Shown here in pieces: positions 25,927-42,687 of a stretch of DNA of 64,000 nucleotides (position 1 is its first letter; each line of letters opens with the position of its first letter). Source of the stretch: Syntrophales bacterium (GTDB taxonomy: Bacteria; Desulfobacterota; Syntrophia; Syntrophales; UBA2210); contig CAXXKT010000001.1 of NCBI GenBank assembly GCA_963662405.2, forward strand, positions 2,722,542 through 2,786,541, read 5' to 3'. The position numbers and the translations under genes were made by a program. Below the pieces are notes generated by a model. The model made no database searches. It was not told the origin of the DNA and saw only the letters and a program-made list of their open reading frames with translations.

Positions 25927-27288
25927 TTATTCAATCAAAACAAATCTTCTTTTTCCGCTTATTGTCAGTGGGACATTTTTAACAATTTCGACTTCAACTT
26001 TTTTTTGCATCTCTTTTTCCCAATAGTTTTTAATAAAAGTCGAAACATCGGGTTTAAATAGATTATTCACTACTAGCTTAAATATAACCCTATCAATACT
26101 ATCTACTACCTGAAATTGATCAATTGCACCAAAAGTTGGGAGGTCTTGGCGAGAGAAAAAGATTGTAAAATCATGCACTATAAACTTGCCTTTGGGTAAT
26201 TCCAAAACCTCATTTTCCCTACCCAATATTCTAGTAATCTTTAAATGTTTTCTGCCACACTCGCAAGGTTTTGAATTTATCTCCACTAAATCTTGCGTAT
26301 CATAGCGAATGAATGGATGAGCCAAATTCCACAAATCAGTTGAAATAAGTCGACCAACCCCTTCTAACAACAGGTTACCATCTTCATCAATTATTTCGCT
26401 GATGCCATATTCTTCAGTTGAATGATAACATGTGTGAGTAGGGCATTCAAATACCATAGAATTGCCCTCGCAAGCATAGGAATCAAAAATTCTGCAATCA
26501 AATGCCTCCTCGATTTCATTGCGAGTTTCAGCAAATAATGTGTTGCCAGTTGTTGTTATTGCCCTTGGTGAAAATTTATATTCTGGGTGTAGCTTTTTAT
26601 AGCGTGCTAAAAACAATAATGGATCTGGATAGCATCTGATTACTTTAGGTTTGTAATCCTCTACTTGACTGAGAATAAAAGCAAAAGTTTCATCAATTAA
26701 GGGACTGGTTGCCAAGTATAAATTATTACTCATTTTATCCTGTAAACGTTTCATTGGGTTTTTTCTAGGGTTTTGACTCAGTTTAATATATTTGTCACCC
26801 AAGCGAAAACCCATCCAATACCATCCCCTCAAATTTGCAGCGATATTCATAGAATAAGCTTCTTTGGTCCTAAAATAGGATAAAGGCTCTCCAGTTGACC
26901 CACTTGAGCTGCTTTTTACTCTTTTATTATTGGGAACATTCCTTGATGTAAATCTGTCAATCCCTTCTTTTTTAATGATAGATTTTGTCAAAACAGGAAG
27001 TTTAGCTAAATCATTCTTCATTTGGATATCATTCGGAGTTAAATTAAGACTATCAAATAAATCATGATAATAGGGAACGTAATGATAAGCATTATTGATG
27101 AGTATCTTAAGCCGTTTGTTTTGAAACGATTCGATGTGCTCTCTTGACCAGAACTGGCTTTTATTTAGGAATTTAAGTTTATTATAAACAGAGTTGCCCG
27201 TGAGCAAATCGCTTATCGGCAAGTATGTTTTTTCTTGCAAAAAGTGAGATAAAAACATGTGTGTTTTGTTTTTCATTTTACTCCCCAT
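25927..27288 (-). CDS. capK: CapK-like adenylate-forming enzyme (phenylacetate-CoA ligase family)
   Basis: VPYY, LPVLTK, SSSGSTGEP, PFIRYDTQD, ILGRE, SGKRR. Confidence 0.82.
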   Translation of the reverse strand: MGSKMKNKTHMFLSHFLQEKTYLPISDLLTGNSVYNKLKFLNKSQFWSREHIESFQNKRLKILINNAYHYVPYYHDLFDSLNLTPNDIQMKNDLAKLPVLTKSIIKKEGIDRFTSRNVPNNKRVKSSSSGSTGEPLSYFRTKEAYSMNIAANLRGWYWMGFRLGDKYIKLSQNPRKNPMKRLQDKMSNNLYLATSPLIDETFAFILSQVEDYKPKVIRCYPDPLLFLARYKKLHPEYKFSPRAITTTGNTLFAETRNEIEEAFDCRIFDSYACEGNSMVFECPTHTCYHSTEEYGISEIIDEDGNLLLEGVGRLISTDLWNLAHPFIRYDTQDLVEINSKPCECGRKHLKITRILGRENEVLELPKGKFIVHDFTIFFSRQDLPTFGAIDQFQVVDSIDRVIFKLVVNNLFKPDVSTFIKNYWEKEMQKKVEVEIVKNVPLTISGKRRFVLIE

Positions 27289-27340
27289 ACAATAGGGATC
27301 TCTTCATTGTTAAAAACGGATTATCGATGGAGAACTTTTA

Positions 27341-28342
27341 TCAATTATTATATATACTGATTAACTTGTTTTTTTGATTAGACCATTTAAGTGAATTTGA
27401 AAACATAAGGCCATTATTAACTAATAATATGTTTTTGTTTTGGTCAGCAAGAGCTTTAAGTATCTTATCTTGTAATTTATCTAAATTGTTAGATTGAAAC
27501 AGATAACCTGTTTCACCATCTTTAACGATATACTTGATACCGCCGACATCTGAGGATATAACTAATATTCCATTGAGATATCCTTCGATTATAGATAACG
27601 GATAATTATCAATTGTGCTTGGGTTTATCATAATATCAGCTTTATTTAATTCAGTATAAATAGATTTATTATCAATTTTACCTTTAAAAACAACATCGTG
27701 TATATCTAGTTTGCTTACATAATTCTCTAGATTTAACTTCTCTCCACCATCACCAATGATAGTTAGCGTCGCGTTATTATACTTAGATTGAATTACTTGA
27801 AATGCATCAATAGCTAACCTAATGTTATATATTTCTTCGAGTGATCTGATTGTAATAAATTTTGGATTAAAATTTTTTCGAATCTTAAAAACATTTATAT
27901 TATCATTAATTATGTTTGGGACAATAACTGATTTATATCCGAATTTATAAAATGTATCATGCAAAAATGGTGAAAGTGTGATTAATACACTTAGATACTG
28001 GAAGAAATATTTCAACATCCAATTCCAACTTTGAAGAAATTGTTCGGCACCACCGCCATGATAAGTTGCAATACTTTTTTTACCCCAGAGCCACGCTGAA
28101 ATTATCGAAATTGCAATTGGATAAAAACCCAAGTATGAACAACCATGAGCGTGAATTACATCGAATCTTCTACTTCGTATTAATAGTAGGGGAAAAGAAA
28201 TAAATTTATGAAAGTAACTTCCATGGGTATTGTGAAATTCAGCAAATATGTTCTCTTTTGGAAGTTCGGAAAGAAGTAAATCAATTTGACCAGATATTGA
28301 GCCAGTATTTCCTTTATAATTGCCTACAATCAACACTTTCAT
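27341..28342 (-). CDS. GT4 glycosyltransferase
   Basis: HGG, RSLEEIYN, DNYPLSIIE, SDVGGI. Confidence 0.88.
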   Translation of the reverse strand: MKVLIVGNYKGNTGSISGQIDLLLSELPKENIFAEFHNTHGSYFHKFISFPLLLIRSRRFDVIHAHGCSYLGFYPIAISIISAWLWGKKSIATYHGGGAEQFLQSWNWMLKYFFQYLSVLITLSPFLHDTFYKFGYKSVIVPNIINDNINVFKIRKNFNPKFITIRSLEEIYNIRLAIDAFQVIQSKYNNATLTIIGDGGEKLNLENYVSKLDIHDVVFKGKIDNKSIYTELNKADIMINPSTIDNYPLSIIEGYLNGILVISSDVGGIKYIVKDGETGYLFQSNNLDKLQDKILKALADQNKNILLVNNGLMFSNSLKWSNQKNKLISIYNN

Positions 28343-29595
28343 AATTCGAATAACATTTCTTTTTTCATATTATTAATAATACCCGCAATTGCTCCTAAAA
28401 AAAGGAAACTGAATGAACGAAAAGTTATTGCATACATTTGACCTGAAATAGATAAAATTAAAGGGACTATTAATAAAGCAAGATATATCGGTTTCAGAAT
28501 TTGATATGTGTAATATGGTGGAAGAAATTTATTGTTTTTCTTATAAAAAACAAATGCTTTGTAGTAGATCAATAAATAAATCGTTAATCCAAATAGCCCA
28601 CTACCATGTGCTATTAAATTATAATCAATATGAATCTGTCTTGGCCCAAATGAACCATCGGCGTAATTACCAACCGAATTCATAAATTCCGTTCCGAAAA
28701 ATGAATTCAATGGATTTTCAAAACTGAGTAGACCTTTCCAAATAGATACTGTTTCCAAATATCTCATTTCCGTTTTGTAACTAACCGCAGTAAATCTCTC
28801 CGCCCTAATATTAATTTGATCATGAATTATATTTGCATAATTATAATAAACAATAACGAGTATTATACCAATAATGAAGAGGGGCAATAATATTTTTCTT
28901 TTTCGTGGCCAAAAAAATATTTCAATCAAAAAACCTGCTAGTACTGCAAGAATTGCAATCCTTGTCAAATTTAGAACAAGCATAACAAATAGAACTAGCC
29001 CCAAGATCATGTATATCGCATTCTTTTGTATATTATTGGTAAAACCCATTAGGAGTGGGAGTAAAAGCAAAACATATACACTTGAATTAAAAGAGTGTCC
29101 GGACAGACTACCAGCAGCTAATATTTGCTCATTGCCATAACTTCCACCTATACCAGAAACTGAACATATAATTGCATTAATTATCATAATAACCATTATA
29201 ATTATTATGGGTTTAGTTAATTTTTTTAAGTGAACTATGGTCTTGATAAGATAAAAGCCTAATGGATACATCAGAAGAGATGCGCATATTTGCAAATATA
29301 CCCGAAAAGATATGTAGAAAGATGAAGAAAAGAATACCAGTAAAAACGAATAAATAATATAAAAATAAATATATGAGCAAACTGAATTTTTCCGATAATA
29401 ATTTATAATAATATAAATCACAAATGAATAAATTGTAAGAGCTCTGACTATTGCTGAAATACCACCTTTGTCGAAAAATAAAGAAAATACATCAACTAAT
29501 ATATTAAATATTAAAATTACATAAATAAATTTTGCCACCCCATCTAAGGAATGGCTCCTGGCAATATTTGAGGGCCCTGATATAACCAATGACAT
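28339..29595 (-). CDS. wzy: Wzy-like polysaccharide polymerase
   Basis: About 11 TM helices, AT-rich, TRIAIL and IHIDY motifs, located inside the repeat-unit cluster. Confidence 0.7.
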   Translation of the reverse strand: MSLVISGPSNIARSHSLDGVAKFIYVILIFNILVDVFSLFFDKGGISAIVRALTIYSFVIYIIINYYRKNSVCSYIYFYIIYSFLLVFFSSSFYISFRVYLQICASLLMYPLGFYLIKTIVHLKKLTKPIIIIMVIMIINAIICSVSGIGGSYGNEQILAAGSLSGHSFNSSVYVLLLLPLLMGFTNNIQKNAIYMILGLVLFVMLVLNLTRIAILAVLAGFLIEIFFWPRKRKILLPLFIIGIILVIVYYNYANIIHDQINIRAERFTAVSYKTEMRYLETVSIWKGLLSFENPLNSFFGTEFMNSVGNYADGSFGPRQIHIDYNLIAHGSGLFGLTIYLLIYYKAFVFYKKNNKFLPPYYTYQILKPIYLALLIVPLILSISGQMYAITFRSFSFLFLGAIAGIINNMKKEMLFEL

Positions 29596-30621
29596 TTATT
29601 GATTCAATTCCATGTAAGAGTTAATTCGGCTCATTAATTTTGAAATAGCATCAATCACAATAACATTTTCGAATTGCGGTAAGTCGATTTTTGTTTTTAT
29701 TAGGGGATACAACCAAATATGCATATTATTATCCTTATTCAATAATGCGGCCGAATACCAACTAATTATCACTGAGTTTTTGAATTTATTTAGAAGTAAC
29801 TCAACGGGTACATTATCATTAATAATAGAAGCATTGTTTAATTTGTCTTTAATTCGAGTAGTTAATATCTCTCTGGGATGTGATTTGTAAAAAAGATTAA
29901 TATTGTTTTTTAAGCAATAATCTTGAAGTTTGATAAGTACTCTTTCCTCAACTTCTAAATTTCTTGAATTGATAACACCCTGAGATATAAACAAAATTGA
30001 ATTTGAAGGGAATGAGACATCATTAGGTAAGTTAAAAATACCTTCAATCTTAACAAGTACTCTGTTTTCTATTTCATATGTCAATTGGGAAATATTTGAC
30101 GAATTTATTTTCTTAAAATAACTGGGATGAGTTACATAAGTTTCATCGATTTTTGGATTTATTCCCCATTCTGAAAAGAATTCTAAATGCTTATATTTGT
30201 ATATGTATTTATATATTAGATATTTTATGTATTTTTTGACTTTTGGGAGAGGAGAGGTATAGGCATTTAAACCATCTTGAATTAAATATAACTTTGCATT
30301 ATTCGTCTTAGCTAAATTTATTATTATTGTATTTAAAAAGTCATTATCCAAAAAAAGATATACTTCTTTAGCGTTGGATAAAATAGGTGTAATTTTACTT
30401 TTGAAAAAAAAATATTCATTCCTATCATTACTTAAAAGAAAATTATTCAATGCAATGAAATTGGCATTAATATTAAATTTGAACTTGTTATTAAATCGAT
30501 TCCCTTGTTTGACAAGGACAAAAAAATAGTCATAACTATTTGAATAATTTCTAAAAAAGAAAATGAGCGAAACAAAGAGGTGAAACTCAGTATTTGCAAC
30601 AAAAACGATATTTTTTTTCAT
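29596..30621 (-). CDS. Putative nonulosonic-acid (sialyl-type) transferase
   Basis: IQDG (cf. D/E-D/E-G), YKSHPRE (HP motif), PVELL, SAAL. Adjacent to the NulO biosynthesis genes and wzx. Confidence 0.72.
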   Translation of the reverse strand: MKKNIVFVANTEFHLFVSLIFFFRNYSNSYDYFFVLVKQGNRFNNKFKFNINANFIALNNFLLSNDRNEYFFFKSKITPILSNAKEVYLFLDNDFLNTIIINLAKTNNAKLYLIQDGLNAYTSPLPKVKKYIKYLIYKYIYKYKHLEFFSEWGINPKIDETYVTHPSYFKKINSSNISQLTYEIENRVLVKIEGIFNLPNDVSFPSNSILFISQGVINSRNLEVEERVLIKLQDYCLKNNINLFYKSHPREILTTRIKDKLNNASIINDNVPVELLLNKFKNSVIISWYSAALLNKDNNMHIWLYPLIKTKIDLPQFENVIVIDAISKLMSRINSYMELNQ

Positions 30622-31880
30622 TTTTTTATTATTAATTCATAATAGCAAATTACATTTGCAGAAAAAAAGTAGAGAACACTTGCTATAAGTAGCCCGTAAG
30701 CAACGCCCAATAAAGGATTCATCAAAATAGCAAAAATACACAATGTCCCACCAAAAAGTATTAACTTGAGAATTGTCAATATAATTAGTGAATTCCAAGC
30801 TTTAATGCTATTTAACACATTTATCCCAACCAATGAACCAATGAAGGCAGAGGATAAAGATGTGATTTGAGCAGGATATAATCCCTCCATGTATTTTGGA
30901 AAAAATTCTCTAACCACCCAAGGAAGCAAAAAATATCCTCCAATCCCGATAGGAAGTAGAAATATTAGCAAATAAAAATTCGATTTCCACGTCATCTGCC
31001 ACAGTCTTTCCTTTTGGCCATGTTTTCCCCAATCAAATGACATCTGAGGGTATATATATTGACCTACGACCGAGGGCATCACTTTCATTGCAGAAATGAT
31101 TGCCAACGCAGGGGAAAATAAACCAACGCTTAACACACCCCCAAGAATTAATAGAATAAGACGTGGAAATGTATTAGTTAATCCTTGCAAGTATCCCATG
31201 GAAAACAAAGGTAATCCAACTTTTAACAGAGAATTGAGACTTTTCCTTTCTAACTTTGCCGTTACCCTTATGGGACGATAATGATGAAGGAGAAAGATAA
31301 GACTGATTGCAACCAGAAGACTGCGTACCAAAAGACCATAAAAGCCATATAAATAAATAAAAATAAGTGATAGGAAAATTATGGTTGTTTGTATAAAATA
31401 AATATTTGCAAGTTGATCAAAGGATTTACTAGAACGAAAGGTAACTTGAAGATAATTTTGGTAAAAATTGGTTACTGAAATTAATATTACAACAAAACCT
31501 GCTGATATATACCTAAAATCATTGCCATAAAAAAAGATAAAACAAAAAAGAACAAATATTCCAATAGACAAAGTAATCAATGCACAAACTTTGTTTACCC
31601 ACAAGGCGGTTGAAGCATATTTTTTTACGTTTTCCTCTAATCCCTTCCCAAATTGAAATGGGAGTTCGCGGTTTAATGCGTTAAAAACACCCAATTGAAT
31701 AAAAAAAATATATGATTGAAATATTATTAATGAGTTCCAGATTCCGATACTCTCCGGCTCTAACCAAGAGATGATTACAATACCTGTTGACATATTTGCT
31801 AATGTCATCAGTATTGAAGAAACAGTAAAAGCAAATGCAGTTTTGTTTTTGTTATAGGATTTTAATAGGTCTTTAATCAC
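30618..31880 (-). CDS. wzx: Wzx flippase
   Basis: About 12 TM helices, IQLGVFNALNRELP, VGQYIYPQMS. Confidence 0.8.
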   Translation of the reverse strand: MIKDLLKSYNKNKTAFAFTVSSILMTLANMSTGIVIISWLEPESIGIWNSLIIFQSYIFFIQLGVFNALNRELPFQFGKGLEENVKKYASTALWVNKVCALITLSIGIFVLFCFIFFYGNDFRYISAGFVVILISVTNFYQNYLQVTFRSSKSFDQLANIYFIQTTIIFLSLIFIYLYGFYGLLVRSLLVAISLIFLLHHYRPIRVTAKLERKSLNSLLKVGLPLFSMGYLQGLTNTFPRLILLILGGVLSVGLFSPALAIISAMKVMPSVVGQYIYPQMSFDWGKHGQKERLWQMTWKSNFYLLIFLLPIGIGGYFLLPWVVREFFPKYMEGLYPAQITSLSSAFIGSLVGINVLNSIKAWNSLIILTILKLILFGGTLCIFAILMNPLLGVAYGLLIASVLYFFSANVICYYELIIKK

Positions 31881-31893
31881 AGATAAAGTTACG

Positions 31894-32577
31894 TCATTTA
31901 ATGTTTTTCATAAGCTTATGAAAAACAATATTATGACCCTCTATATTTAGATGATACCCATCATCACTAATTCCCCCTAAATCACTATTATCATAAGGTT
32001 GTACCAAAGTAATATTTGTAAATTCTTTGCTTAGATGCCTATAAATCTCATTATATGTATTTATGCTATCGTTAATGTAAGGATTCTTATTGATAAAAAT
32101 ATCGGATACTGGCGCTATCATTATTACAATAATTTTCGTACCAATGGTATTTGCTCTTTGACAAAATTCTCTCAGATTGGCATAAAATCTGTCTGGCAAT
32201 ACATATGCGTTTCGGGGGTTTCTTGTATGATGAGTTTTTACGTATTTCATATACCAAGTCAGCACGCTTTTGCGCAGAATTATATTGACTATTTTCTCTA
32301 ATCTCTTTTTCATATATCTTGGGGCGCAATCAACAATACCAAGTTGCAATATAACTATGTCAGGCTTATAATTTTCCAAAAGGTCGGCGCCGTGTATTGG
32401 GTGCGATTGGCCACCTTCATTTACAAGGCGTTCTGTCGTTGAACCACGTTTTATTTTATCTATAAACTCCCATTCGGGTATCGCATCAATAAGCTTATAG
32501 ACCCACGTGTCTTCATAGGCTGTCCCTCGCCGCGGCATTGCGAGAGAATCCCCGATAATCATAACTCTTTTTTTCAT
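31894..32577 (-). CDS. SGNH/GDSL hydrolase-family protein
   Basis: IIGDSL, QLGIVD, DDGYHLN. Confidence 0.85.
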   Translation of the reverse strand: MKKRVMIIGDSLAMPRRGTAYEDTWVYKLIDAIPEWEFIDKIKRGSTTERLVNEGGQSHPIHGADLLENYKPDIVILQLGIVDCAPRYMKKRLEKIVNIILRKSVLTWYMKYVKTHHTRNPRNAYVLPDRFYANLREFCQRANTIGTKIIVIMIAPVSDIFINKNPYINDSINTYNEIYRHLSKEFTNITLVQPYDNSDLGGISDDGYHLNIEGHNIVFHKLMKNIK

Positions 32578-32626
32578 AACAGTTTTCTATTTCATGATCT
32601 TCATATAGGCGTACTGCCCACTCTTG

Positions 32627-33424
32627 CTAACTTCCCAACATATTCAATATGTTAGAATGGTTCTTTTTGTAAAATTCCCTAATCATTTGAGAGTCTTGAT
32701 CATCAACGGATCGCTGAACAATTTTTTGATTGGAAACAAATAACTTATTTCTTGATATACAGTCAGCTATTTCATACAGGCAGGGAACATAGTCTGAAGG
32801 AAACAACTGATACAATTTTAGGAACTCCTGGTAATCTAGCATTTCGTCCATGGTCAAGCGAAAGTTTTTATCGAAAAGATTTTGAAGATGAATCGGTGGC
32901 TCCAGTCTTTTGACATTGAAATATTTTGGTTGCTTTACCCATCCTCCCCATATCTCGGTATTGCTCTCGGCTTTAAATGCATAGATAATCTCCAACATCC
33001 TGGCTCTAACAACATACAAATTGCCACCAATTGGCAAATTATCATAATATGCAAAATCAGTATCCGGATTTTGCTGCACCCAATCGACCAATAGTGATCC
33101 CTGTTCAAAAGAAAATAGTGGGTTATCAGCAGTGATCCCGACAAAATAATCCATTCGAAACAGACGCGCTGCATCATGTAAACGTTTCAAAACGTCATTG
33201 GGATGCCCAGCAAAGGCGTAAGCACCTTCCTGTTTTGCAATCTGCACCAGCGGAAAATCTTGTGGGTCTAGGGAAGTACATACCACAATATCGCTAATGC
33301 CATGTATTTTACGAGCACGATCTATCACCCTTTGGATGGTGGATCGACCATTAAGATCGAGCAAGACTTTCATCGGCAACCGTGTTGATTTTAGCCTAGC
33401 AGTAATTAAAAACCCGACATTCAT
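32627..33424 (-). CDS. Cytidylyltransferase (SpsF/CMP-nonulosonate synthetase-like)
   Basis: ARLKSTRLPMK, DVLKRL, ITADNP, RLTMDE. Confidence 0.85.
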   Translation of the reverse strand: MNVGFLITARLKSTRLPMKVLLDLNGRSTIQRVIDRARKIHGISDIVVCTSLDPQDFPLVQIAKQEGAYAFAGHPNDVLKRLHDAARLFRMDYFVGITADNPLFSFEQGSLLVDWVQQNPDTDFAYYDNLPIGGNLYVVRARMLEIIYAFKAESNTEIWGGWVKQPKYFNVKRLEPPIHLQNLFDKNFRLTMDEMLDYQEFLKLYQLFPSDYVPCLYEIADCISRNKLFVSNQKIVQRSVDDQDSQMIREFYKKNHSNILNMLGS

Positions 33425-33433
33425 CTCTCACTC

Positions 33434-34438
33434 CTAGTCATCTATTTTTAACATTTCGCGGGTAATGATCGAACCTACGCTGACATTGCGCGTAAATCGG
33501 TATCGTCCAACTTTGCCGAGCATGATCGGCAACAGATCCGATACTTGCGCGGTACGTTTAAAACAAATATAGTCCCAATCAAGCTTCTCTCCGGATTGGA
33601 AATTACGAGTTGCAATCATTGCTCTTCGCATCGGACCAATTCGGCTATATTGGTTTTCTCCTTCGTTTTGTACCAATAGTCCGTCACCTTCAACTAGTTC
33701 AGCCAAATCAAGCCATCGTCTTAACTGATCTAACTGTTCGATAGAAATTGCGGCCTCATAATCTAGCCTTTTTTCACCTGGCCGATGGGTAGCGTGTTTT
33801 TCAAGATATGTTTTGTCCATTCCTCCCAATAAAGAAATTAAAATATTGTCCGGATGGTTCCATTCTGTGTGATCTGCATATCCATAACTCGATTTTGGGA
33901 AAAGATTCATTAGACGCCGTTGCTTGGCCAAATCAACATGACCCGGTATAGTTGGATAATTTTGAATGCCAAACATTAGCACTAGATTCTGAGCATACCT
34001 CTGATACAGGGCGTCCACTTCTTCAATGGGAATCGCTCCTACACCAATTAACATTGCTTTACCGGCACAAAATGCATTTTCAGCAAGATATTTAAGCAAA
34101 TGGACATCATGTACGGCTACAGCATGCAATTCGAGGGCTGTGGTTTCATGAGCTAATGCAAACTCAATGCTTTTTTTGTCGTTGCACAAAGCTATCAGCT
34201 CCTTGCCGGAACTTATCACTTTTTGTGTAACTTTTTCCCAGCATCTTTCAGAAAGCAGCATTTCTTTCGCTTTATTGTATGATGGATGATCCGGGTGCAT
34301 ATATTCATCTATGTCAAGGCTGATGTGTATTTTTATACAATCAGCCCGTGAAACACATAAATGTTCTACGAGATCTAGCATGAATTTTTCATCACCTTGA
34401 TGATGCCAAGCTGTTTCGGCTATAAGCAGCTTTTTCAT
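33434..34438 (-). CDS. Divergent NeuB-family protein (second paralog) with C-terminal SAF domain
   Basis: IAETAWHHQG, NYP, GYADHT, LEKHAT, SAF-like tail. Several canonical residues are replaced. ATG 34438 preferred over 34456. Confidence 0.8.
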   Translation of the reverse strand: MKKLLIAETAWHHQGDEKFMLDLVEHLCVSRADCIKIHISLDIDEYMHPDHPSYNKAKEMLLSERCWEKVTQKVISSGKELIALCNDKKSIEFALAHETTALELHAVAVHDVHLLKYLAENAFCAGKAMLIGVGAIPIEEVDALYQRYAQNLVLMFGIQNYPTIPGHVDLAKQRRLMNLFPKSSYGYADHTEWNHPDNILISLLGGMDKTYLEKHATHRPGEKRLDYEAAISIEQLDQLRRWLDLAELVEGDGLLVQNEGENQYSRIGPMRRAMIATRNFQSGEKLDWDYICFKRTAQVSDLLPIMLGKVGRYRFTRNVSVGSIITREMLKIDD

Positions 34439-34577
34439 ATAAGCTCTCCAAACCAATAAGATGATATGAATATTTTAGATATAGAATTGCGTATGGTTTG
34501 CAGACAATCACAGCAGTTATAGACACTCCAATATACTGCTAATTTCTGCCTATTCACCGCGTAATTTACGTCACAAC

Positions 34578-35633
34578 TCATTTCTGTAATCTTTTTATAG
34601 CTTCTCCGTATTTCTCCCATTCCCCAACATCCATCCATGCATTCTCACTTATAGGATATACCGTAACGCGTCCGTTGCCACCTTTTATGTCATTAATAAG
34701 TTGGGTCATATGGTAGCTTTGTCCCTCTGGAATTATGCTCAATACGACCGAATCAATTACGTACATCCCTGTATTAACAAGGAAGCTAACGCACGGTTTT
34801 TCCTTAATTAATTTAAGCAATCCTCCGCTTTCGATTTCACAGATCCCGTAGGGAATATCGTAGTTTTTTACCGAGGCGACGATGGTAATATTGCTCTTGC
34901 TTTTCTTGTGATATTTTAAAATCTTTCCGTAGTCTTCCTGAATAAGAACATCTGAATTGGATACAAAGATAGGACCGGCGATATTCTCCGGCAAATATTT
35001 TAACCCTCCTGCCGTACCCAAGGGGATGTCTTCGTCGATGTATTTGACATTATATTGCTTTTTAAACTCTTCAAAATATGCCTTGATCATTTTTGATTTG
35101 TGGTTCAGCGTAACATAAAATTCTTTCGTCCCGTGTTCATGGAATTTATCCATTATTAGCTCAATAATGGGTTTATCACCTATGGGAATCAGTGGCTTAG
35201 GCAATATTCTTGTAAAAGGATCTAAACGTGTTCCTTTACCGCCTGCCATTATAACAACAGGGGCACGTAGTTTTGAAAATACCTTTTTCTTAGAGTTTCC
35301 GAATGCCTTATCCCAAGTTATATAATCTACAACTTGGCGATCTTGATTTATGATTGGAATTAGCGTGATTTTACTTTCTATAAAAATTTTTTTGACTATA
35401 TCTAGATCCATACTATTCTTGAATACAAAAATTGGATTTTTATTGTATATATTCTCAACCGTTGCCGACAGGTCTTGTGTTTTCAGGATGTGGCGTCTAA
35501 TATCACCATCTGTTAACGTGCCCAGAAGTTTCTGCTCATGATCAATTATCAAGAGAACTTTTTCTGCCGTTTTGTTCAATGTTTCCATTGCACTTTTCAT
35601 ATTTGTTGCTGGCTGCACCAATAAATTCTTCAT
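34578..35633 (-). CDS. CBS-pair + nucleotidyltransferase (PtmE/LegX-like sugar-1-phosphate guanylyltransferase)
   Basis: LGTLTDGDIRR (CBS), MAGGKGTRL, PKPL, PLGTAGGL. Confidence 0.88.
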   Translation of the reverse strand: MKNLLVQPATNMKSAMETLNKTAEKVLLIIDHEQKLLGTLTDGDIRRHILKTQDLSATVENIYNKNPIFVFKNSMDLDIVKKIFIESKITLIPIINQDRQVVDYITWDKAFGNSKKKVFSKLRAPVVIMAGGKGTRLDPFTRILPKPLIPIGDKPIIELIMDKFHEHGTKEFYVTLNHKSKMIKAYFEEFKKQYNVKYIDEDIPLGTAGGLKYLPENIAGPIFVSNSDVLIQEDYGKILKYHKKSKSNITIVASVKNYDIPYGICEIESGGLLKLIKEKPCVSFLVNTGMYVIDSVVLSIIPEGQSYHMTQLINDIKGGNGRVTVYPISENAWMDVGEWEKYGEAIKRLQK

Positions 35634-35654
35634 GTCAACATCCTGGTATTAGTC

Positions 35655-36797
35655 TCAGTTGTGAATTCTTCCTATGCACTGGTGCTTACTGTTTTCATGT
35701 AAAAACCTGATTATAGCCTTGGAAATGCGTGCCACAGCTTTTCCATCGCCATAAAGATTATTGCACCGCGCTTCAGGCCAGGAACTAGTAAACCCTTCTC
35801 TAAGGGCAGCTTCCAAAGCGGTTGTTGTGGGTTCCACATCTTTGATTCCGACATCTTTATCGCGACCCTGCTGACGTGTTCCAATATTGATTACCGGTTT
35901 ATGAAAATACGGTGCTTCCATAATTCCGCTGCTTGAGTTCCCGATTACGAACGTGCAATCTCTTAATGCAGCATAATATCCTTCAATGCCTAAGTTTTTT
36001 TGTATATAAACCCCTGAGCGGTTAGCGTTCTTCTCTATTACTTCAATAATGAGATCAGCGCCAGTGTCATTATTGGGATAAGTCAACAGCACATCAACTG
36101 AATTAGATAATATGCAATCAATTGCATATTGCATCAAATCAGAAATTGGTTCATGAAGAGTTGTCACCGGGTGAAATGTCATCAATGCAAATTTTCGATT
36201 CCTGAGTTCTCGAATGATGCTGGAAATTGAAATACTGGTCTGTTGAAATTTTATTATTGCATCCACAGTCGGTGAACCAGACAGTATCACGGTATTCATA
36301 TCGACAAGTGGACATCGTATTAACCGTTCCCATGCTGTCTTTGATGTTGCGAAATGCAACGAGGCAATGTTGGTGATATTGAATCGATACACATTGTCAA
36401 CAGCCCCCATTGTGAGGTTTCCGCCTCCACTGTGTATGACAGGCAACTTCAAAAAATGTGCTGCCAAGGCTGCGCTATAAGCCTCGATACGGTCCCCGAT
36501 TACAAAAACAGCGTCCGGTTTTTGCCTTTCGAGGGTTTCATATATCTTTGTGAGGGAGCGGGCAAACTCAACTGCTTTGGGTTCTCCGTCCTCCGTGTAT
36601 GTATGTATGACTTCCGGGATGAGGAAATCACCCTGTATGATTTCATTCATGGTGTTTCCGAAGCGATCCAGCAGGTGCATGCCATTGGGGTATATCTCGA
36701 TATCAACATCTTCAACGTCTTGCAAACGCCTCAACAAAGGACGGGCCATGCCATATTCGGAACGTGCCCCTGTCATAAAGGCTAGTCGGTATCCCAC
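35655..36797 (-). CDS. legG: Hydrolysing NDP-sugar 2-epimerase (NeuC/LegG-like)
   Basis: TGARSEYG, GMHL, GDRIE, TFHPVT, YPNND, GNSSSG, GTRQQGR, YGDG. Confidence 0.85.
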   Translation of the reverse strand: MGYRLAFMTGARSEYGMARPLLRRLQDVEDVDIEIYPNGMHLLDRFGNTMNEIIQGDFLIPEVIHTYTEDGEPKAVEFARSLTKIYETLERQKPDAVFVIGDRIEAYSAALAAHFLKLPVIHSGGGNLTMGAVDNVYRFNITNIASLHFATSKTAWERLIRCPLVDMNTVILSGSPTVDAIIKFQQTSISISSIIRELRNRKFALMTFHPVTTLHEPISDLMQYAIDCILSNSVDVLLTYPNNDTGADLIIEVIEKNANRSGVYIQKNLGIEGYYAALRDCTFVIGNSSSGIMEAPYFHKPVINIGTRQQGRDKDVGIKDVEPTTTALEAALREGFTSSWPEARCNNLYGDGKAVARISKAIIRFLHENSKHQCIGRIHN

Positions 36798-37801
36798 TGC
36801 AAATGCTCTCTACGTATAATCCGGTTTGATTCAATTCGTTTTTTCACGACCCGACCTAACACATTTTCCAGTTCGGTGGGAAGGAACCCGGTTCCGGGGC
36901 GCTTAAAACAGATGTCTTCACCTTTCAAAATTTCTCCCGGTTGTATGTTTCTGGTGGCAACGATGCTCTTCCGCGCTACTCTCGCGATTTCTTCTTCTTC
37001 GGAAGAAAACGATTTTTCGGAAACACCAAGGCATTCTTCGACACGGCGTATACTTTTCACTAATGAGGTAAATTCGGAAATGGTCGCCGATGCCTTATGA
37101 TCAGGGCCGGGGAGGTTTTTGTCAAGGGTGACGTGCTTTTCAATAATCGTAGCTCCAAGCGCAACCGCGGCAATAGCTGCTTCTGGACCAAGAACATGAT
37201 CTGAATATCCAATTTTACGATTAAATCGGCGTGAGAGTTCCATCATGACACGAAGATTTACTTTTATTGCTGCTGCGGGATAGCTGCTAACGCAGTGCAG
37301 CAAAGTAACATCATTTTTATGCAGAGGATCCAAACGTGAAAGAGCCACTTCGATTTCATTATAAGTTGCCATTCCCGTCGACATCATGATCGGTTGTTCT
37401 TTTTTTGCCAGATAATCCATCATGTCGAATGAAAATATCTCTCCTGATGCTATTTTGAATCGTTGCACATTAATTTCTTCATCAAGAAAAATAAGACTTT
37501 CCAAATCAAAAGCGGTGCAAAGATACTCAACGCCCTTTTGTTGGCACAGCTCTGCCAACTCTATATGAACGCTTCTCGTAAGCTGTCGTCTTTTGGCTGC
37601 CTCAATAACTTCCACAGCGTTATCATTGTGAAGTTGATATTGTGCCTTAAAAGCATCAAGAGAATACGTTTTTTCCGGATTTCCGAGCTGAAATTTTATT
37701 GCATCAACCCCAGTATCCGCAAGCAGTTCCACATAGGTTCGTGCCAATTTGGGTGAGCCATTGTGGTTGGGGCCGACTTCAGCAACAATAAACACACTCA
37801 C
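36782..37801 (-). CDS. legI: Nonulosonic acid synthase (NeuB/LegI-like)
   Basis: AEVGPNHNG, IKFQ, KIASGE, STGMA, LHCVSSYP, GYSDH, IEKH, GPDH, SAF domain. Confidence 0.9.
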   Translation of the reverse strand: MSVFIVAEVGPNHNGSPKLARTYVELLADTGVDAIKFQLGNPEKTYSLDAFKAQYQLHNDNAVEVIEAAKRRQLTRSVHIELAELCQQKGVEYLCTAFDLESLIFLDEEINVQRFKIASGEIFSFDMMDYLAKKEQPIMMSTGMATYNEIEVALSRLDPLHKNDVTLLHCVSSYPAAAIKVNLRVMMELSRRFNRKIGYSDHVLGPEAAIAAVALGATIIEKHVTLDKNLPGPDHKASATISEFTSLVKSIRRVEECLGVSEKSFSSEEEEIARVARKSIVATRNIQPGEILKGEDICFKRPGTGFLPTELENVLGRVVKKRIESNRIIRREHLQWDTD

Positions 37802-38757
37802 TGGTCCACCTCATACGTAAAAAGATGCACCCCTTTCATGCCAATAATTGTTTTTCCTATAGATGGCAGTGCAACTTGTTGTCCATGGTATTGAGACAGG
37901 AGGCAGCTCAGGTAATTGAAACCAGCGGCATGGGTAAAAGGATATCCCCCCCCGAATCTGGGGTTGAAATCAATGAAAAATATGTTTCCGGTGTGGTCCA
38001 CAATAAAATCCACGTCCATGTTCCCGACATGATGAAAGGCGCCACTAATTATCGGTCCCCATTCAAGTAGTTCCTGATCGTATATTACCTCGGCCTTGTC
38101 GGTTTCACCGGCCCTCATCAAGAGCTTTCTGCGAAGGCAGCAATGGATAAATTCTCCACGCAACCCGTTGAGAACATCCATCCCATACTCTACCCCTATG
38201 ATGTGTTCCTGAAGGAGGAAGCCTGGTGGTACCTGTGAGGGAATAGCGTCCGGCGTATCAATGTGCTGAAGCCCGACGCTTCCGCTACCAAGTGGCTTCT
38301 TCATTATGAGGGGAGGTCGTGCCTCACCGGTTGCCTCTCCCGGATACCATGACCGAGGCACGTGCAAAGCATGCTCATCACAGAAAGCATGGCAGCGTTG
38401 CTTGTTAAGGCATGTATCAATTATATCAGGGGATGCTACTATTACGGTAATGCCATTTGCTGCAAATCGATCCTTCCACTTTGCAAGAACCGGTAGCTCA
38501 TAATCCATAAGCGGTATAACCACTTCGATCCCATAATCGAGACACTTCTTTAGTAATGCGCCGGCGTATTTCTCAGGATCGTCACTTACATGGGGCGTTA
38601 CAAAACGTTTTACCTCTTGGGCAACCCACATTGCCGCAGTATCTTTGCTGGTATCGCACACAAATACATCGAGATCAGTGATACCCTGCCGTTTAATATC
38701 CAAGGCGTACTCTATTAAGTAAGTTCGCCTTCCCGCGTTTGTAAACAATAGTTTCAT
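37798..38757 (-). CDS. ATP-grasp ligase (CarB-like, polysaccharide-cluster type)
   Basis: AGRRTYL, KKPLGSGSVG, LQEHIIGVEY, MRAGETDK, DFNPRFGGGYP. Confidence 0.88.
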   Translation of the reverse strand: MKLLFTNAGRRTYLIEYALDIKRQGITDLDVFVCDTSKDTAAMWVAQEVKRFVTPHVSDDPEKYAGALLKKCLDYGIEVVIPLMDYELPVLAKWKDRFAANGITVIVASPDIIDTCLNKQRCHAFCDEHALHVPRSWYPGEATGEARPPLIMKKPLGSGSVGLQHIDTPDAIPSQVPPGFLLQEHIIGVEYGMDVLNGLRGEFIHCCLRRKLLMRAGETDKAEVIYDQELLEWGPIISGAFHHVGNMDVDFIVDHTGNIFFIDFNPRFGGGYPFTHAAGFNYLSCLLSQYHGQQVALPSIGKTIIGMKGVHLFTYEVDQ

Positions 38758-39590
38758 GAAATGAGGTTATTTAACTGTCCACCAGTATTTATCATAATCC
38801 CGTTTTCCAGACGCGTGGATTCGAGATATTCCACAACCCGAATATTATATATCGGATCAACTAATATTCCAAAACTCTTAAGAAACATGAAGCGCAGTTC
38901 ATTATGATGCTCCTCAATTTGACCGTATCGTCCTGAAAACCGGTCATCAATAATCAAGTTTTTCGTAATTTCTTTTATCAGTCCTTGACCAACAATTTCT
39001 GCTGCAGCCTCCAGACACTTTTTTTTCGTTCTTGACACAGATACGCCGATTACCTTCATTTCCAGGCCGATTTCAAAAATTGCATAAAGAATACCAAGTG
39101 CCGTTGTGCCGGTACCGTATGGTAACGCAATCCATTCCCGGCTTTTCAAATCAGGGGATTCGTTAAGGATTTTACAAAACCAATCTTTATATGCATTCAT
39201 ACCAGCGCGAGTATGTCCTCCCCCAGGAACCCAGTAATACGTGTGAAACTGTCTTCGTTCTTCATCTATTCGTTCCTGTGCCCTGCTTGGATCAATGAAC
39301 AGTAGTTCCGCCCCCAAATATTTCGCCAATTTTAGGTGTGGGTATTTTGAGATATCTGCGCTATCCTTTTCCAAAATAAGAAGACGAACCGGTATGTTCT
39401 GCGTAGCACCCCAATACGCGGTAGCGAGGCAGTGGCTCGAGTATTTTGAACCATGTGTCATCAAACCTTCTGGCTTTATATTTCTCAATATGTAGGATAA
39501 CTTTCGTATTTTGTTACCCCCACATACGGGCCAATTTCGTGATTCATCAATAATGTATAGTGATGGGCTCTTCTGCGTAGATCTTCTCAT
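38754..39590 (-). CDS. PLP-dependent fold-type-II enzyme, D-cysteine desulfhydrase/ACC deaminase family
   Basis: GGNKIRKL (PLP lysine motif), SSHC, VPGGG, GTGTT, DPIY. Confidence 0.85.
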   Translation of the reverse strand: MRRSTQKSPSLYIIDESRNWPVCGGNKIRKLSYILRNIKPEGLMTHGSKYSSHCLATAYWGATQNIPVRLLILEKDSADISKYPHLKLAKYLGAELLFIDPSRAQERIDEERRQFHTYYWVPGGGHTRAGMNAYKDWFCKILNESPDLKSREWIALPYGTGTTALGILYAIFEIGLEMKVIGVSVSRTKKKCLEAAAEIVGQGLIKEITKNLIIDDRFSGRYGQIEEHHNELRFMFLKSFGILVDPIYNIRVVEYLESTRLENGIMINTGGQLNNLIS

Positions 39591-39806
39591 TTTCCTTCAC
39601 GATCCAAAGCTTATGCTTTGCTAGTGCGCTGTTTATACCCAAGTAGTCAAATGTTTTTTGAATCTGATAGTTTTTTCCGTAAATTCCCACTCTCTGCAAC
39701 TAGATCTCTCTTATTTTCAATAATGAGTAGAGAGGGGAGGAGAGAGAGCACATCGGATTGCAATACTTCCAGTCTGGCCTCGGTGTAGATATTTCGAAGT
39801 TCATCT

Positions 39807-40310
39807 TCAGTTTCTAACATTATTTTGGCTTCCTACCAAAGAGTGGTCGAGTTCTAACCGATAATGCATACTGAGTCGCCCATTGCTGTCGATGGCTTTT
39901 TGGGTAAGCTTAAAACCGACACCCTCGATGAGGCGGATCATGTGTGTGTTGCCTGACCAAGTACGAGTCTCGATTGCACTCATGCCAGCCTCTCTTACAT
40001 GCTGAATCATTTGGTTTATTAAAGCAAAACCGAGTCTCTTACTGCGTATTGTACGGTCGATAGCAATGAATGAAAGGAAAGCGTCTTCATAGCTCTTTGG
40101 AGTACAATAAAATGCTAACATTCCCCAAATTTTATTTCTAACCTTATCTAGTATAATAAGTATCACGGCCTGTTTATAGAGCTTCTCCGTATAAGCGGTC
40201 AAATCAACCCGTGTGGAAAGATTTGGATAAAAATCCGGTCCTACTTTTTCGATAAACTTCAGCAGATCGGATTCTGTAAGTACCGAGTCATGCAGATAAG
40301 CTATCTCCAT
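39807..40310 (-). CDS. GNAT family N-acyltransferase
   Basis: FIAIDRTIRSKRLGFALI (motif A), TWSGN, GVGF. Confidence 0.82.
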   Translation of the reverse strand: MEIAYLHDSVLTESDLLKFIEKVGPDFYPNLSTRVDLTAYTEKLYKQAVILIILDKVRNKIWGMLAFYCTPKSYEDAFLSFIAIDRTIRSKRLGFALINQMIQHVREAGMSAIETRTWSGNTHMIRLIEGVGFKLTQKAIDSNGRLSMHYRLELDHSLVGSQNNVRN

Positions 40311-40408: not shown

Positions 40409-41563
40409 TTATATCCTTACGCTGCTTGGAATATTCGCCACCCGGTCTTCCAACCACTGGGCGTTTTCGAGTGCATCGGTTTGACATCCTTGATACATTT
40501 CCAACTTATTCATGAGCTTCCATGCCGGCCGTGTCATGACACCGGCCTGATTGGTAGCTTTGAGAAATGCGTCGCGAGTTGCCCGGTCTGGCACAATAAT
40601 AGCGTTCAACCAGTAGCTCGATCGGGCAGCCATGGGCTCCCGGACAAAGGGTATCTCCAGGGAATCAAAGAATTCCTGGTAGCGTGCCGCCAGTTCCCGT
40701 TTATTTTCCACGAAGGTACTGAGCTGTTCCAACTGCGCGCACACGAGGGCAGCGTTGAGATTTGGAAGTCGGTAGTTATAACCAACCATGTCATGGACAT
40801 ATTCATACGGGTGGGGGACCTTGGCCGTTGTGGTTATATGTTTCGCTTTTTTGGCCAGGGTCTCGTTGTTTGTAACAATTGCCCCGCCGCCACCGCAGGT
40901 CACCGTTTTGTTTCCGTTAAAGCTGTATATGCCAAAGAGCCCAAAGGTACCGGTATGCTTGTTTTTGTAGAAGCTCCCGATCGATTCGGCAGCATCCTCG
41001 ATAAGGGGGATGTGGTATCGGGTACAAATATCAGCGATCGCCTCAATCCGGCAGGGATGACCGAAGGTATGCATGGGGACACAGGCAGCAATTCGTCTGC
41101 CGGTTGTTGTATTATGACAGATATTGCCTTGTATGTGTGTATGGCCCTGTAGAAAACGATCTAAAGCGTTGGGATCAAGTCCCAATGTCTCACGTTCGAC
41201 GTCGAGGAATATCGGGGTAGCTCCGCAGTGCGCAATGGCATTAGCTGTCGCCACAAAGCTCAGTGGTTGGGTAATAACTTCATCACCTGGTTCAACTCCC
41301 GCGAGCTTCAATGCCACTTGAAGGGCACAGGTACCGTTCACAACGGCGACAGCAAACCGCGCGCCGGTAATCTCGCATATCATGTTCTCGAAATGATCCA
41401 CATACGCGCCAACGGAAGAAACAATCGTAGAGTCGATAGCATCATTGACATACTTCTTCTCGTTTCCGAGGAACCGCGGAACGTGCAAGGGAACCGGATT
41501 TTCTCCCGGGTACAGAGATCGGATGAAGTCAATTATACGGAAAAATGATTCAGCGGAAATCAT
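40409..41563 (-). CDS. legC: LegC-family PLP aminotransferase (DegT/DnrJ/EryC1/StrS)
   Basis: PLHVPRF, VSSVG, FVATANA, EDAAESIGS, SFNGNK. Confidence 0.92.
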   Translation of the reverse strand: MISAESFFRIIDFIRSLYPGENPVPLHVPRFLGNEKKYVNDAIDSTIVSSVGAYVDHFENMICEITGARFAVAVVNGTCALQVALKLAGVEPGDEVITQPLSFVATANAIAHCGATPIFLDVERETLGLDPNALDRFLQGHTHIQGNICHNTTTGRRIAACVPMHTFGHPCRIEAIADICTRYHIPLIEDAAESIGSFYKNKHTGTFGLFGIYSFNGNKTVTCGGGGAIVTNNETLAKKAKHITTTAKVPHPYEYVHDMVGYNYRLPNLNAALVCAQLEQLSTFVENKRELAARYQEFFDSLEIPFVREPMAARSSYWLNAIIVPDRATRDAFLKATNQAGVMTRPAWKLMNKLEMYQGCQTDALENAQWLEDRVANIPSSVRI

Positions 41564-41608
41564 ATTTAAAGGAAATATTCCACGTCTCCTGTTTTGAGAT
41601 CAACGCTA

Positions 41609-42598
41609 CTACACATTATAGATGTAGCTCTTGAATCTCTTTAGGTTCTCGGGATCGGTGAACCAGGCAATTGTCTTCTCCAAGCCTTCGCGCAAGGTGT
41701 ATTGAGGGGCAAAGCCTGTTAATTGCCGGATCTTTGTGTTGTCGCACCATAGACGGAATACCTCGGATTTTGGGGGACGAAGACGCGGGGTATCCGTGAT
41801 GATCTCGGTATCAGAGCTCATGATTTCTCTGATGATATCTACGACCTCACCAATGGACACCTCAAAGTTCGAACCGATATTTACCGTTTCTCCTATGGTT
41901 CGTTTACACTCCGCTAGGGAAATAAAGCCGCGGCAAATATCTTCGACATAGGTAAAGTCGCGTGTTGGCATGAGATCGCCAAGTTGTATCTGTTTTTCAC
42001 CCTTAGCAATCTGTGTAATAATTGTGGGGATCACTGCGCGAGTCGATTGACGAGGGCCATAGGTGTTAAATGGCCGTGCTATGGTCACAGGCAGATTAAA
42101 GGCGTGAAAGAAACTTTTCGCCATCGCATCGGCGGCGATCTTTGAGGCACTGTACGGTGATTGCGGTTGTAGGGGATGGTTTTCGTCGATGGGAACATAT
42201 TGGGCTGTCCCGTAGACCTCGGAGGTAGACGTGTGGACAACCCGTTCGCACCCATTGTCGAGTGCGGCTTGGCAGATATTAAGAGTTCCCTTGACGTTGG
42301 TTTCCACGTAACTGTCAGGGGCAATGTACGAATATGGAATTGCAATAAGCGCCGCAAGATGAAAGACAACATCAACGTTCTTTGTGATTTTTTTGCAGTA
42401 GTGTGGATCTCGGACATCACCAATAAGTATTTCTATATCGTGTAAGCACTCTGTGTCTTCAAGCCACCCCCAGTAGTTGAAGGAATTATATTGGCTCAGG
42501 GCTTTGGCATCCGCCCCTTGTTTTACGAGTATTTCCGTGAGGTGCGAGCCGATAAAACCATCTGCCCCAGTTATAAGAATTTTTTTGTTTGTCAGCAT
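41609..42598 (-). CDS. legB: NAD-dependent 4,6-dehydratase LegB
   Basis: TGADGFIGSHL, YNSFNYWGWLE, HLAALIAIPYSY, YSASK. ATG 42598 preferred. Confidence 0.92.
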   Translation of the reverse strand: MLTNKKILITGADGFIGSHLTEILVKQGADAKALSQYNSFNYWGWLEDTECLHDIEILIGDVRDPHYCKKITKNVDVVFHLAALIAIPYSYIAPDSYVETNVKGTLNICQAALDNGCERVVHTSTSEVYGTAQYVPIDENHPLQPQSPYSASKIAADAMAKSFFHAFNLPVTIARPFNTYGPRQSTRAVIPTIITQIAKGEKQIQLGDLMPTRDFTYVEDICRGFISLAECKRTIGETVNIGSNFEVSIGEVVDIIREIMSSDTEIITDTPRLRPPKSEVFRLWCDNTKIRQLTGFAPQYTLREGLEKTIAWFTDPENLKRFKSYIYNV

Positions 42599-42687
42599 AA
42601 TAATTATTAATCGAGCTTGTTTTGGCACCTATGGGAAAGGTGCCATGTATTTAACTGTCTATGGAGGCAACAATGCCTTATTTTATG

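Follow-up and report, generated by a model that had tools for sequence, protein, structure and literature searches.

A divergent NeuB-family protein paired with a cytidylyltransferase is a candidate C4-epimerase for legionaminic acid

The stretch of DNA analysed here (the window) comprises 64,000 nucleotides of a Syntrophales bacterium genome (GenBank assembly GCA_963662405.2, contig CAXXKT010000001.1, positions 2,722,542 to 2,786,541) and carries, in a polysaccharide gene cluster on its minus strand, two genes of the NeuB family of nonulosonate synthases. One encodes a canonical synthase that uses phosphoenolpyruvate (PEP), and the other a divergent protein, here called NeuBX. We propose that NeuBX is a metal-dependent C4-epimerase that would make 4-epi-legionaminate before activation with cytidine monophosphate (CMP), and on the residue patterns and gene neighbourhoods described below we give this proposal about an even chance of being correct. 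An earlier reading of the sequence (the original prediction) had put the same gene forward as a candidate for an undescribed nonulosonate-tailoring step, and as a candidate it is supported by our comparisons. The genes on which the argument turns are as follows.

33434..34438, minus strand: NeuBX, divergent NeuB-family TIM barrel with SAF domain, 334 amino acids (PF03102, 47.6 bits, over the cut-off)
32627..33424, minus strand: SpsF-type cytidylyltransferase, 265 amino acids, directly downstream of NeuBX (PF02348, 57.9 bits; cut-off 22.6)
36782..37801, minus strand: canonical NeuB/LegI synthase with every PEP and metal residue present (motif and domain scans)

Fold and active site of NeuBX

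The NeuBX open reading frame (ORF) is intact, as the original prediction had stated; it runs from an ATG at 34438 to a stop that ends at 33434, and the cytidylyltransferase gene starts 9 bases past that stop. NeuBX shares 24% identity with its canonical paralog, and all seven motif changes that had been listed between the two proteins are present and in register (NeuB/NeuBX: GPNH/AWHH, KFQ/KIH, KIASGE/ELHAVA, STG/GVG, HCVSSYP/FGIQNYP, SDH/ADH, and GPDH/RLDY). The protein scores far under the equivalog cut-offs of TIGR03569 (NeuB_NnaB; 60.4 against 399.65 bits) and TIGR03586 (PseI; 35.7 against 340.25 bits), and its homologs are labelled NeuB, LegI, or SpsE in databases. An AlphaFold model of NeuBX (predicted local distance difference test score 95.3) aligns over residues 1-331 with residues 18-349 of Neisseria meningitidis NeuB (1xuu; Z 28.9, root-mean-square deviation 4.3, 317 residues aligned), and the fold matches listed for the model are NeuB, DAHP, and KDO8P synthases. 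This structure-based alignment, which had been suggested as a check, matches the predicted model to both the TIM barrel and the SAF (antifreeze-like) domain; the SAF domain receives no Pfam score in NeuBX itself and scores in 50/120 family members.

A protein search with NeuBX retrieved 389 homologs at E 1e-20 or better, and residue counts are given for the best 120 of these. N. meningitidis NeuB residues were numbered by hand from HMMER alignments to PDB 2wqp and 1xuu, the active-site assignments in NeuBX thus resting on alignment and not on model geometry, and the roles of residues in NeuB synthases are taken from PMC11339185, PMC6795526, and PMC7371886 (articles are cited by PubMed Central accession, each for the passages that concern the point at hand). 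Kept in NeuBX are Glu25 (E8), Lys53 (K36), Tyr186 (Y161), His215 (H190), Glu234 (E213), His236 (H215), Asp247 (D226), and the SAF-domain Arg314 (R295); of these, Tyr186 and Asp247 bind the sugar. NeuBX His190 and His215, both invariant in 120/120 homologs, match the Mn ligands His215 and His236. The original prediction had taken a metal ligand to be lost, which proved to be a misassignment: the metal site is complete, and where GPDH ends in histidine, the N. meningitidis enzyme likewise lacks one and has Ile248.

Of the two PEP-carboxylate lysines, one is kept as Lys36 and the other, Lys129, is changed to Glu103 (120/120 homologs). Gln55 is changed to His38, Thr110 to Leu84, and Gly131 to His105. 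Among the PEP-phosphate residues, Ser132 is changed to Ala106, Ser154 to Gly132, Ser213 to Ala188, and Asn184 to Gln159. In synthases, the three serines that bind the phosphate are reported to be fully conserved (PMC11339185), and of these two are gone across the NeuBX family and all three in the window protein, whose Ala106 is a serine in 109/120 homologs. As judged by alignment, the metal site and most sugar contacts of NeuBX survive and the PEP pocket (Lys129, Ser154, Ser213, Asn184, Thr110) does not, a pattern that fits binding of the synthase's product and not of PEP, and that agrees with the earlier suggestion that NeuBX is unlikely to be a PEP-dependent synthase.

Conservation and distribution of the NeuBX clade

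Among the 25 positions equivalent to the active site, 18 do not vary across the 120 homologs, as compared with 32 of 334 columns overall, and the active-site changes are therefore not a matter of chance; H12, H38, E103, H105, Q159, N160, and R224 are invariant in all 120. Decay of NeuBX, named beforehand as an outcome that would refute the original prediction, is rejected on this invariance across bacteria and archaea. The wider group, found by a profile search of 50% representatives, has 149 listed members (fragments counted as gaps), with Gln159 in 140, His105 in 132, Ala188 in 120, His190 in 144, and His215 in 143; at position 103, 89 members have Glu and 32 have Lys. In a tree built from 88 rows picked by hand, the NeuBX group (60 rows) is split from all canonical NeuB, LegI, and PseI rows with an SH-aLRT support of 100, obtained from a quick search without bootstrap. 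By sequence, NeuBX is a member of a deep, uncharacterised sister clade of NeuB.

Clade members span many bacterial phyla as well as archaea. Carriers in random samples of 400 genomes numbered at least 6 in the window's own phylum, at least 7 in Bacteroidota, and at least 4 in Bacillota, and these counts are floors because only part of the matches were read. NeuBX-type genes were not found in a single-protein GTDB scan or in phage records, and E. coli genomes gave no clade match in a DNA-level search with one sister-subfamily query, which is a weak test. The window genome holds no third NeuB of the NeuBX kind. No description of the clade was found in the open-access literature, subscription journals and supplements lying outside that search.

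Association with a cytidylyltransferase and a canonical NeuB

Gene neighbourhoods were compared in 79 GTDB loci, of which 77 were scored (58 of the window's subfamily and 19 others); L064, missed by the motif filter, and L074, a fragment, were dropped. The cytidylyltransferase adjoins NeuBX in 54/58 subfamily loci, the remaining 4 stopping at contig ends, and many relatives have the two proteins fused. The window's cytidylyltransferase is the sole tblastn match to its own sequence in the genome and has no match to TIGR03584, a model to which four of four control enzymes from legionaminic acid (Leg) clusters score 155-197 bits. Prediction of a complex between NeuBX and the cytidylyltransferase scored 0.00 and gives no answer on contact.

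A canonical NeuB lies within the locus in 44/58 subfamily loci. Twenty genomes, including the 14 with no NeuB in the locus, were searched whole: 17 had a NeuB match above 200 bits (4 of these in short frames of 298-308 amino acids), 2 had none, and 1 was cut at a contig end. Random samples gave 17 clade loci, 2 of them repeats of earlier loci; 15 of the 17 contain a partner NeuB, and both of the others have legB-legC-neuB-neuC elsewhere in the genome. Metagenomes yielded 80 loci, with 71 NeuBX-cytidylyltransferase fusions and a partner NeuB in 38 of the 44 loci that span at least 9 kb. Partner NeuBs are canonical throughout.

Some larger fusions and variant clusters were also seen. P0172 is a triple fusion of NeuB, NeuBX, and cytidylyltransferase, and P0231 and P0270 join NeuBX and cytidylyltransferase to a GT2 domain. 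No neuC is present in the 20 kb retrieved for the NeuBX clusters L308 and L323, where the partner NeuB carries the motifs KxASMD and GWDH.

Linkage to YhcH

A family of 148-amino-acid proteins encoded near NeuBX was identified as DUF386/YhcH. It is found in 23/58 subfamily loci (no more than 172 bases from NeuBX in 7, at a distance of one gene in 12, and farther off in 4) and in 0/19 other loci, and in P0202 it is fused to NeuBX. A local profile detected YhcH in 0/38 clade-free NeuB regions, and Pfam detected it in 4/36 clade-free genomes, never inside the fetched NeuB region, although one of these genes sits on a short contig where linkage is possible.

Lineage was controlled for in a blind test on 301 genomes of Flavobacteriales, the order of Chryseobacterium, searched with LegC alone; 20 of the 21 non-centre genomes over the cut-off were taken (G1207 was left out), and 17 of them had NeuB. 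All three NeuBX clusters include YhcH and an SpsF-type cytidylyltransferase within a single series of neighbouring genes. YhcH was present in 3/3 clusters with NeuBX versus 0/14 without (Fisher p 0.0015), and a NeuA/PseF-type cytidylyltransferase in 0/3 versus 13/14 (Fisher p 0.006), p values that are overstated, related genomes not being independent.

E. coli YhcH opens the ring of N-acetylneuraminic acid (Neu5Ac) and feeds the open form to an aldolase (PMC8141875). The YhcH neighbours of NeuBX score under the curated cut-off for the E. coli-type enzyme (80.5 versus 160 bits), and for this reason we only infer that they open rings. The linkage points to a free, ring-opened nonulosonate as the substrate of NeuBX.

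Occurrence in pseudaminic acid clusters and sister subfamilies

Members of the wider clade also occur in clusters of the pseudaminic acid (Pse) type (L132, L183, L188, L195, L196, L073, L075, and L076). In the Pse cluster of a B. cereus plasmid (L132, 11986-13743) a NeuBX-cytidylyltransferase fusion takes the place of PseF, and the remaining Pse-type calls rest on similarity to the PseI of that cluster. The presence of the clade in both Leg and Pse clusters suggests that it acts on a part that the two sugars have in common. PLSDB annotates only the C-terminal part of the L132 fusion, and further NeuBX-cytidylyltransferase fusions are found in B. subtilis-group strains (the P0490 cluster, 144 members).

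Two other sets of relatives deserve mention. Fusions that retain the lysine (L225-L304) are often on low-GC contigs; radical SAM/SPASM and GT2 genes are present in the loci examined, some of which also have a short NeuB of 232-238 amino acids with KIASRT or KIPARM. A sister subfamily (L058, L060-L063, L066-L071, and L079) has the motifs EMAWxH, xIH, RIG, and xEDF in most members and is accompanied by a class III aminotransferase and a Gfo-type dehydrogenase, some loci adding an SDR or a carbon-nitrogen hydrolase; from these neighbours, it may add an 8-amino group. Two proteins labelled L. pneumophila, P0272 and P0273, belong to this sister subfamily.

Strains known to make C4 epimers

C4 epimers occur naturally in the Leg as well as the Pse series (PMC9912281, PMC3210612), with general background in PMC3766260, PMC12940168, and PMC12531865. 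Fusaminic acid, from Fusobacterium nucleatum 25586, differs from Pse at C4 and C7 (PMC9912281), and a 2020 paper stated that its gene cluster had not been investigated (PMC7371886). Table 4 of PMC4045943 gives F. nucleatum ATCC 25586 a NeuB (FN1684) together with a fusion of NeuB and a cytidine triphosphate (CTP) transferase (FN1686), and has no fusion of this kind among its entries for the three remaining fusobacteria. Neither a Fusobacterium name nor the FN1683-FN1686 gene set appeared among the fusion-type homolog, cluster, and metagenome scans. Every NeuB-cytidylyltransferase fusion whose motifs were read in the loci is a clade member, in searches whose queries favoured such members, and 5/120 fusion-search matches carry other residues at the signature positions.

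Strains of L. pneumophila outside serogroup 1 make poly-4-epi-Leg (PMC3210612). Sister proteins labelled L. pneumophila were found on only 11 and 5 contigs, with the serogroup not given. The ORF9-type second NeuB of Legionella was considered as an ortholog of NeuBX and rejected, as all four read have HSPDGHP and EKG, and the tree, which includes two of them, puts both outside the clade. The second divergent NeuB in Legionella-genus genomes (L096-L099; HSPDGHP, EKG) is unrelated to NeuBX, and its second metal histidine is lost.

Proposed function and alternatives

Chemistry at C3 or C4 is possible only on the free, open keto-acid and not on the CMP-glycoside. In the proposed C4 epimerisation, the substrate of NeuBX would be a free, ring-opened legionaminic acid derivative made by the neighbouring ordinary NeuB. 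A metal on His190 and His215 (with Glu213), together with Lys36, would hold the C1-C2 keto-acid, and the new Glu103, His105, and His38 would serve as acid and base. Either the C3-C4 bond would be cleaved to a bound pyruvate enolate and an aldehyde that rejoin on the opposite face, or the C4 hydroxyl would be removed and then re-added. The SpsF-type cytidylyltransferase coupled to this step would capture the resulting 4-epimer in the form of a CMP-glycoside for a transferase. Both the YhcH ring opener and the position before CMP activation agree with an open product as the substrate, and because the product appears to be kept and passed to a different type of cytidylyltransferase, C4 epimerisation would be the most economical change. 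On a broader scale, a PEP-driven synthase may have become, in a widespread and unrecognised NeuB branch, a retro-aldol epimerase that depends on a metal, receives its substrate from a ring-opening anomerase, and works with a CMP-synthetase of its own, and this would be the missing enzyme for 4-epi-legionaminic and fusaminic acids; to this statement we give somewhat less than an even chance.

Several observations weigh against C4 epimerisation. The YhcH loci are kin and not independent cases, 18 of the 23 being from Bacteroidota (L048 and L049 are near-duplicates), and YhcH is in none of the 80 metagenome fusion-type loci. YhcH is missing from the window genome, which makes the helper optional, and the role of YhcH could instead be to provide an anomer or an open aldose. 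SpsF-type cytidylyltransferases occur without NeuBX (L318 and several Pse loci), and in B. subtilis one acts in the pathway to ordinary Leg (PMC7439481). Most of the Pse-linked and fused members fall in another subfamily: among 120 fusion-type matches, 115 keep Lys129 and 103 have Pro for His105, and the clade may hold more than one activity. The original prediction had asked for a survey of strains with epi-Leg glycans, and its result is divided. The gene layout of F. nucleatum fits, a link at the level of gene architecture. Legionella is unsupportive: clade members were read in only 2/64 genomes scored (2 more were unscored), a Legionella genome with three NeuBs has no clade-level match, and a table for L. 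pneumophila serogroup 6 has, as a gene table only, a divergent NeuB beside a methyltransferase and none beside a cytidylyltransferase (PMC3694923). If NeuBX is a 4-epimerase, it is thus not the sole route to the 4-epimer.

Other functions would account for part of the same evidence. NeuBX could act on a free open nonulosonate with different chemistry, as a class II lyase in proofreading or salvage, as a C3-C4 dehydratase, or by C5 epimerisation through the aldehyde; we regard this reading as a whole as unlikely. The same residue pattern and YhcH linkage would apply, the known partner of YhcH is an aldolase (NanA; PMC8141875), and Gfo-type oxidoreductases are present in 9/58 subfamily loci and 14/19 other loci, but adjacency or fusion to an activating enzyme and the switched cytidylyltransferase type fit a retained product and not a cleaved one, and most subfamily loci are without a reductase to complete a dehydration. 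Less probable still is a PEP-independent synthase that joins pyruvate, oxaloacetate, or another keto-acid to the same amino-hexose and makes the 4-epimer or an analogue directly. In its favour, NeuBX has lost the phosphate pocket alone and retains the metal site and the residues that bind the aldose, both carboxylate lysines are present in many members of the wider clade, and YhcH could open the aldose; however, an ordinary NeuB that would use the same hexose is almost always present, and the window genome has one cytidylyltransferase for both.

The original prediction had left a C4-epimerase and a non-catalytic heterodimer partner side by side. C4 epimerisation now leads, on the YhcH linkage, the Leg and Pse contexts, and the F. 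nucleatum layout, and the partner role is the less likely of the two, as the barrel retains a complete metal site and shows new, invariant polar residues, which a scaffold would not need. We see only a slim chance that NeuBX is a non-catalytic subunit pairing with NeuB, or a scaffold for NeuB and the cytidylyltransferase, that lends its SAF-domain arginine. Arg295 is invariant in the narrow NeuBX family, and the triple fusion P0172 is in keeping with such a role, but the arginine is replaced in 45/130 aligned wider-clade representatives, the partner NeuBs have complete active sites of their own, and the YhcH linkage would be left unexplained. An ordinary synthase that uses PEP in an unusual pocket, or a copy of one in decay, is very improbable for NeuBX: the fold, metal ligands, Lys53, and Arg314 are kept and databases name the homologs as synthases, but the phosphate serines are lost, Lys129 is a glutamate, and conservation from bacteria to archaea excludes decay.

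The gene cluster in the window

The minus-strand polysaccharide cluster has the gene order legB, legC, GNAT, pyridoxal phosphate (PLP) enzyme, ATP-grasp, neuB, neuC, PtmE-like nucleotidyltransferase, NeuBX, cytidylyltransferase, SGNH hydrolase, flippase, polysialyltransferase-like gene, and polymerase. Apart from the three genes given above, its features are as follows.

40409..42628, minus strand: LegC aminotransferase and LegB 4,6-dehydratase (TIGR04181, 541 bits, and TIGR04180, 508 bits, both above cut-off)
37798..40310, minus strand: ATP-grasp, PLP (PALP) enzyme, and GNAT genes (domain scans)
35655..36797, minus strand: hydrolysing 2-epimerase NeuC/LegG (TIGR03568, 301 bits; cut-off 235.9)
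34578..35633, minus strand: CBS plus nucleotidyltransferase (domain scans), which we take to be PtmE-like
31894..32577, minus strand: SGNH/GDSL hydrolase, likely an O-acetyl esterase (homologs in 14/77 related loci)
28339..31880, minus strand: Wzy-like polymerase, polysialyltransferase-like transferase, and Wzx-like flippase (PF07388, 48 bits, above cut-off; Wzy_C and MatE weak)

The polymerase, transferase, and flippase are the likely consumers of the CMP-sugar. A hexapeptide-repeat N-acetyltransferase, one family of which is present in 32/79 related loci, is missing from the window cluster; the ATP-grasp, PLP-enzyme, and GNAT genes replace it, which suggests an unusual N-acyl group that these genes probably build. 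The window NeuB groups in the tree with the NeuB of L007, a locus that also has an ATP-grasp neighbour. GC content is 0.30-0.40 at window positions 26000-36000 versus about 0.50 in the flanks, which suggests that this stretch is an acquired cassette. Just upstream of legB is an ORF of 179 amino acids (42798-43337) that presumably encodes a protein resembling an IS200/IS605 transposase. A promoter scan was at chance level (16 found versus 18.0 expected).

Significance and comparison with known systems

The synthase itself determines C4 of nonulosonates, and for the route to the natural C4 epimers the NeuBX clade offers a concrete candidate. If the proposal is true, a synthase fold has been rebuilt to act on its own product, and C4-epimeric nonulosonates, indistinguishable from Leg and Pse by mass spectrometry, are a product of at least 1-2% of the prokaryote genomes sampled. 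The many database labels that name the homologs as ordinary synthases would need correcting, GFQxYP together with ADH would serve as a sequence marker for strains whose surface sugars merit nuclear magnetic resonance, and an enzymatic route to the rare epimers could become available.

NeuBX shares with NeuB/SiaC, LegI, PseI, and SpsE (PF03102; PDB 1xuu, 8h2c, and 1vli) the TIM barrel and SAF fold, the Mn histidines, and the sugar residues, and differs from them in its replaced PEP pocket and separate clade, and in that it accompanies a synthase instead of replacing one. We take the Ela/Aci-type redox epimerisation modules to resemble the NeuBX module in position, as an add-on with its own cytidylyltransferase that follows the core Leg genes and changes stereochemistry. 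Those modules use NAD-dependent oxidoreductases on C7/C8, whereas the NeuBX module has a NeuB-fold metalloprotein, and the neighbours of the window cytidylyltransferase are the SGNH hydrolase and the flippase, with no adjacent oxidoreductase. L-ribulose-5-phosphate 4-epimerase and the class II aldolases are presumably alike in proposed chemistry only, namely a metal-stabilised enolate and C4 inversion by retro-aldol and aldol steps on an open-chain keto sugar, and that family is not among the fold matches listed for NeuBX. NanA, when accompanied by YhcH, shares the need for a ring-opening helper (PMC8141875).

B. subtilis SpsE and SpsF likewise pair a NeuB-family gene with an SpsF-type cytidylyltransferase, but SpsE is the sole synthase there and is needed for Leg (PMC7439481), whereas NeuBX is an extra gene that matches SpsE weakly (E 0.002). 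F. nucleatum FN1686 is similar in architecture: it joins a cytidylyltransferase to a second NeuB domain, has an ordinary NeuB next to it, and comes from a producer of a C4 epimer. The source annotates FN1686 as belonging to CMP-Neu5Ac synthesis (PMC4045943).

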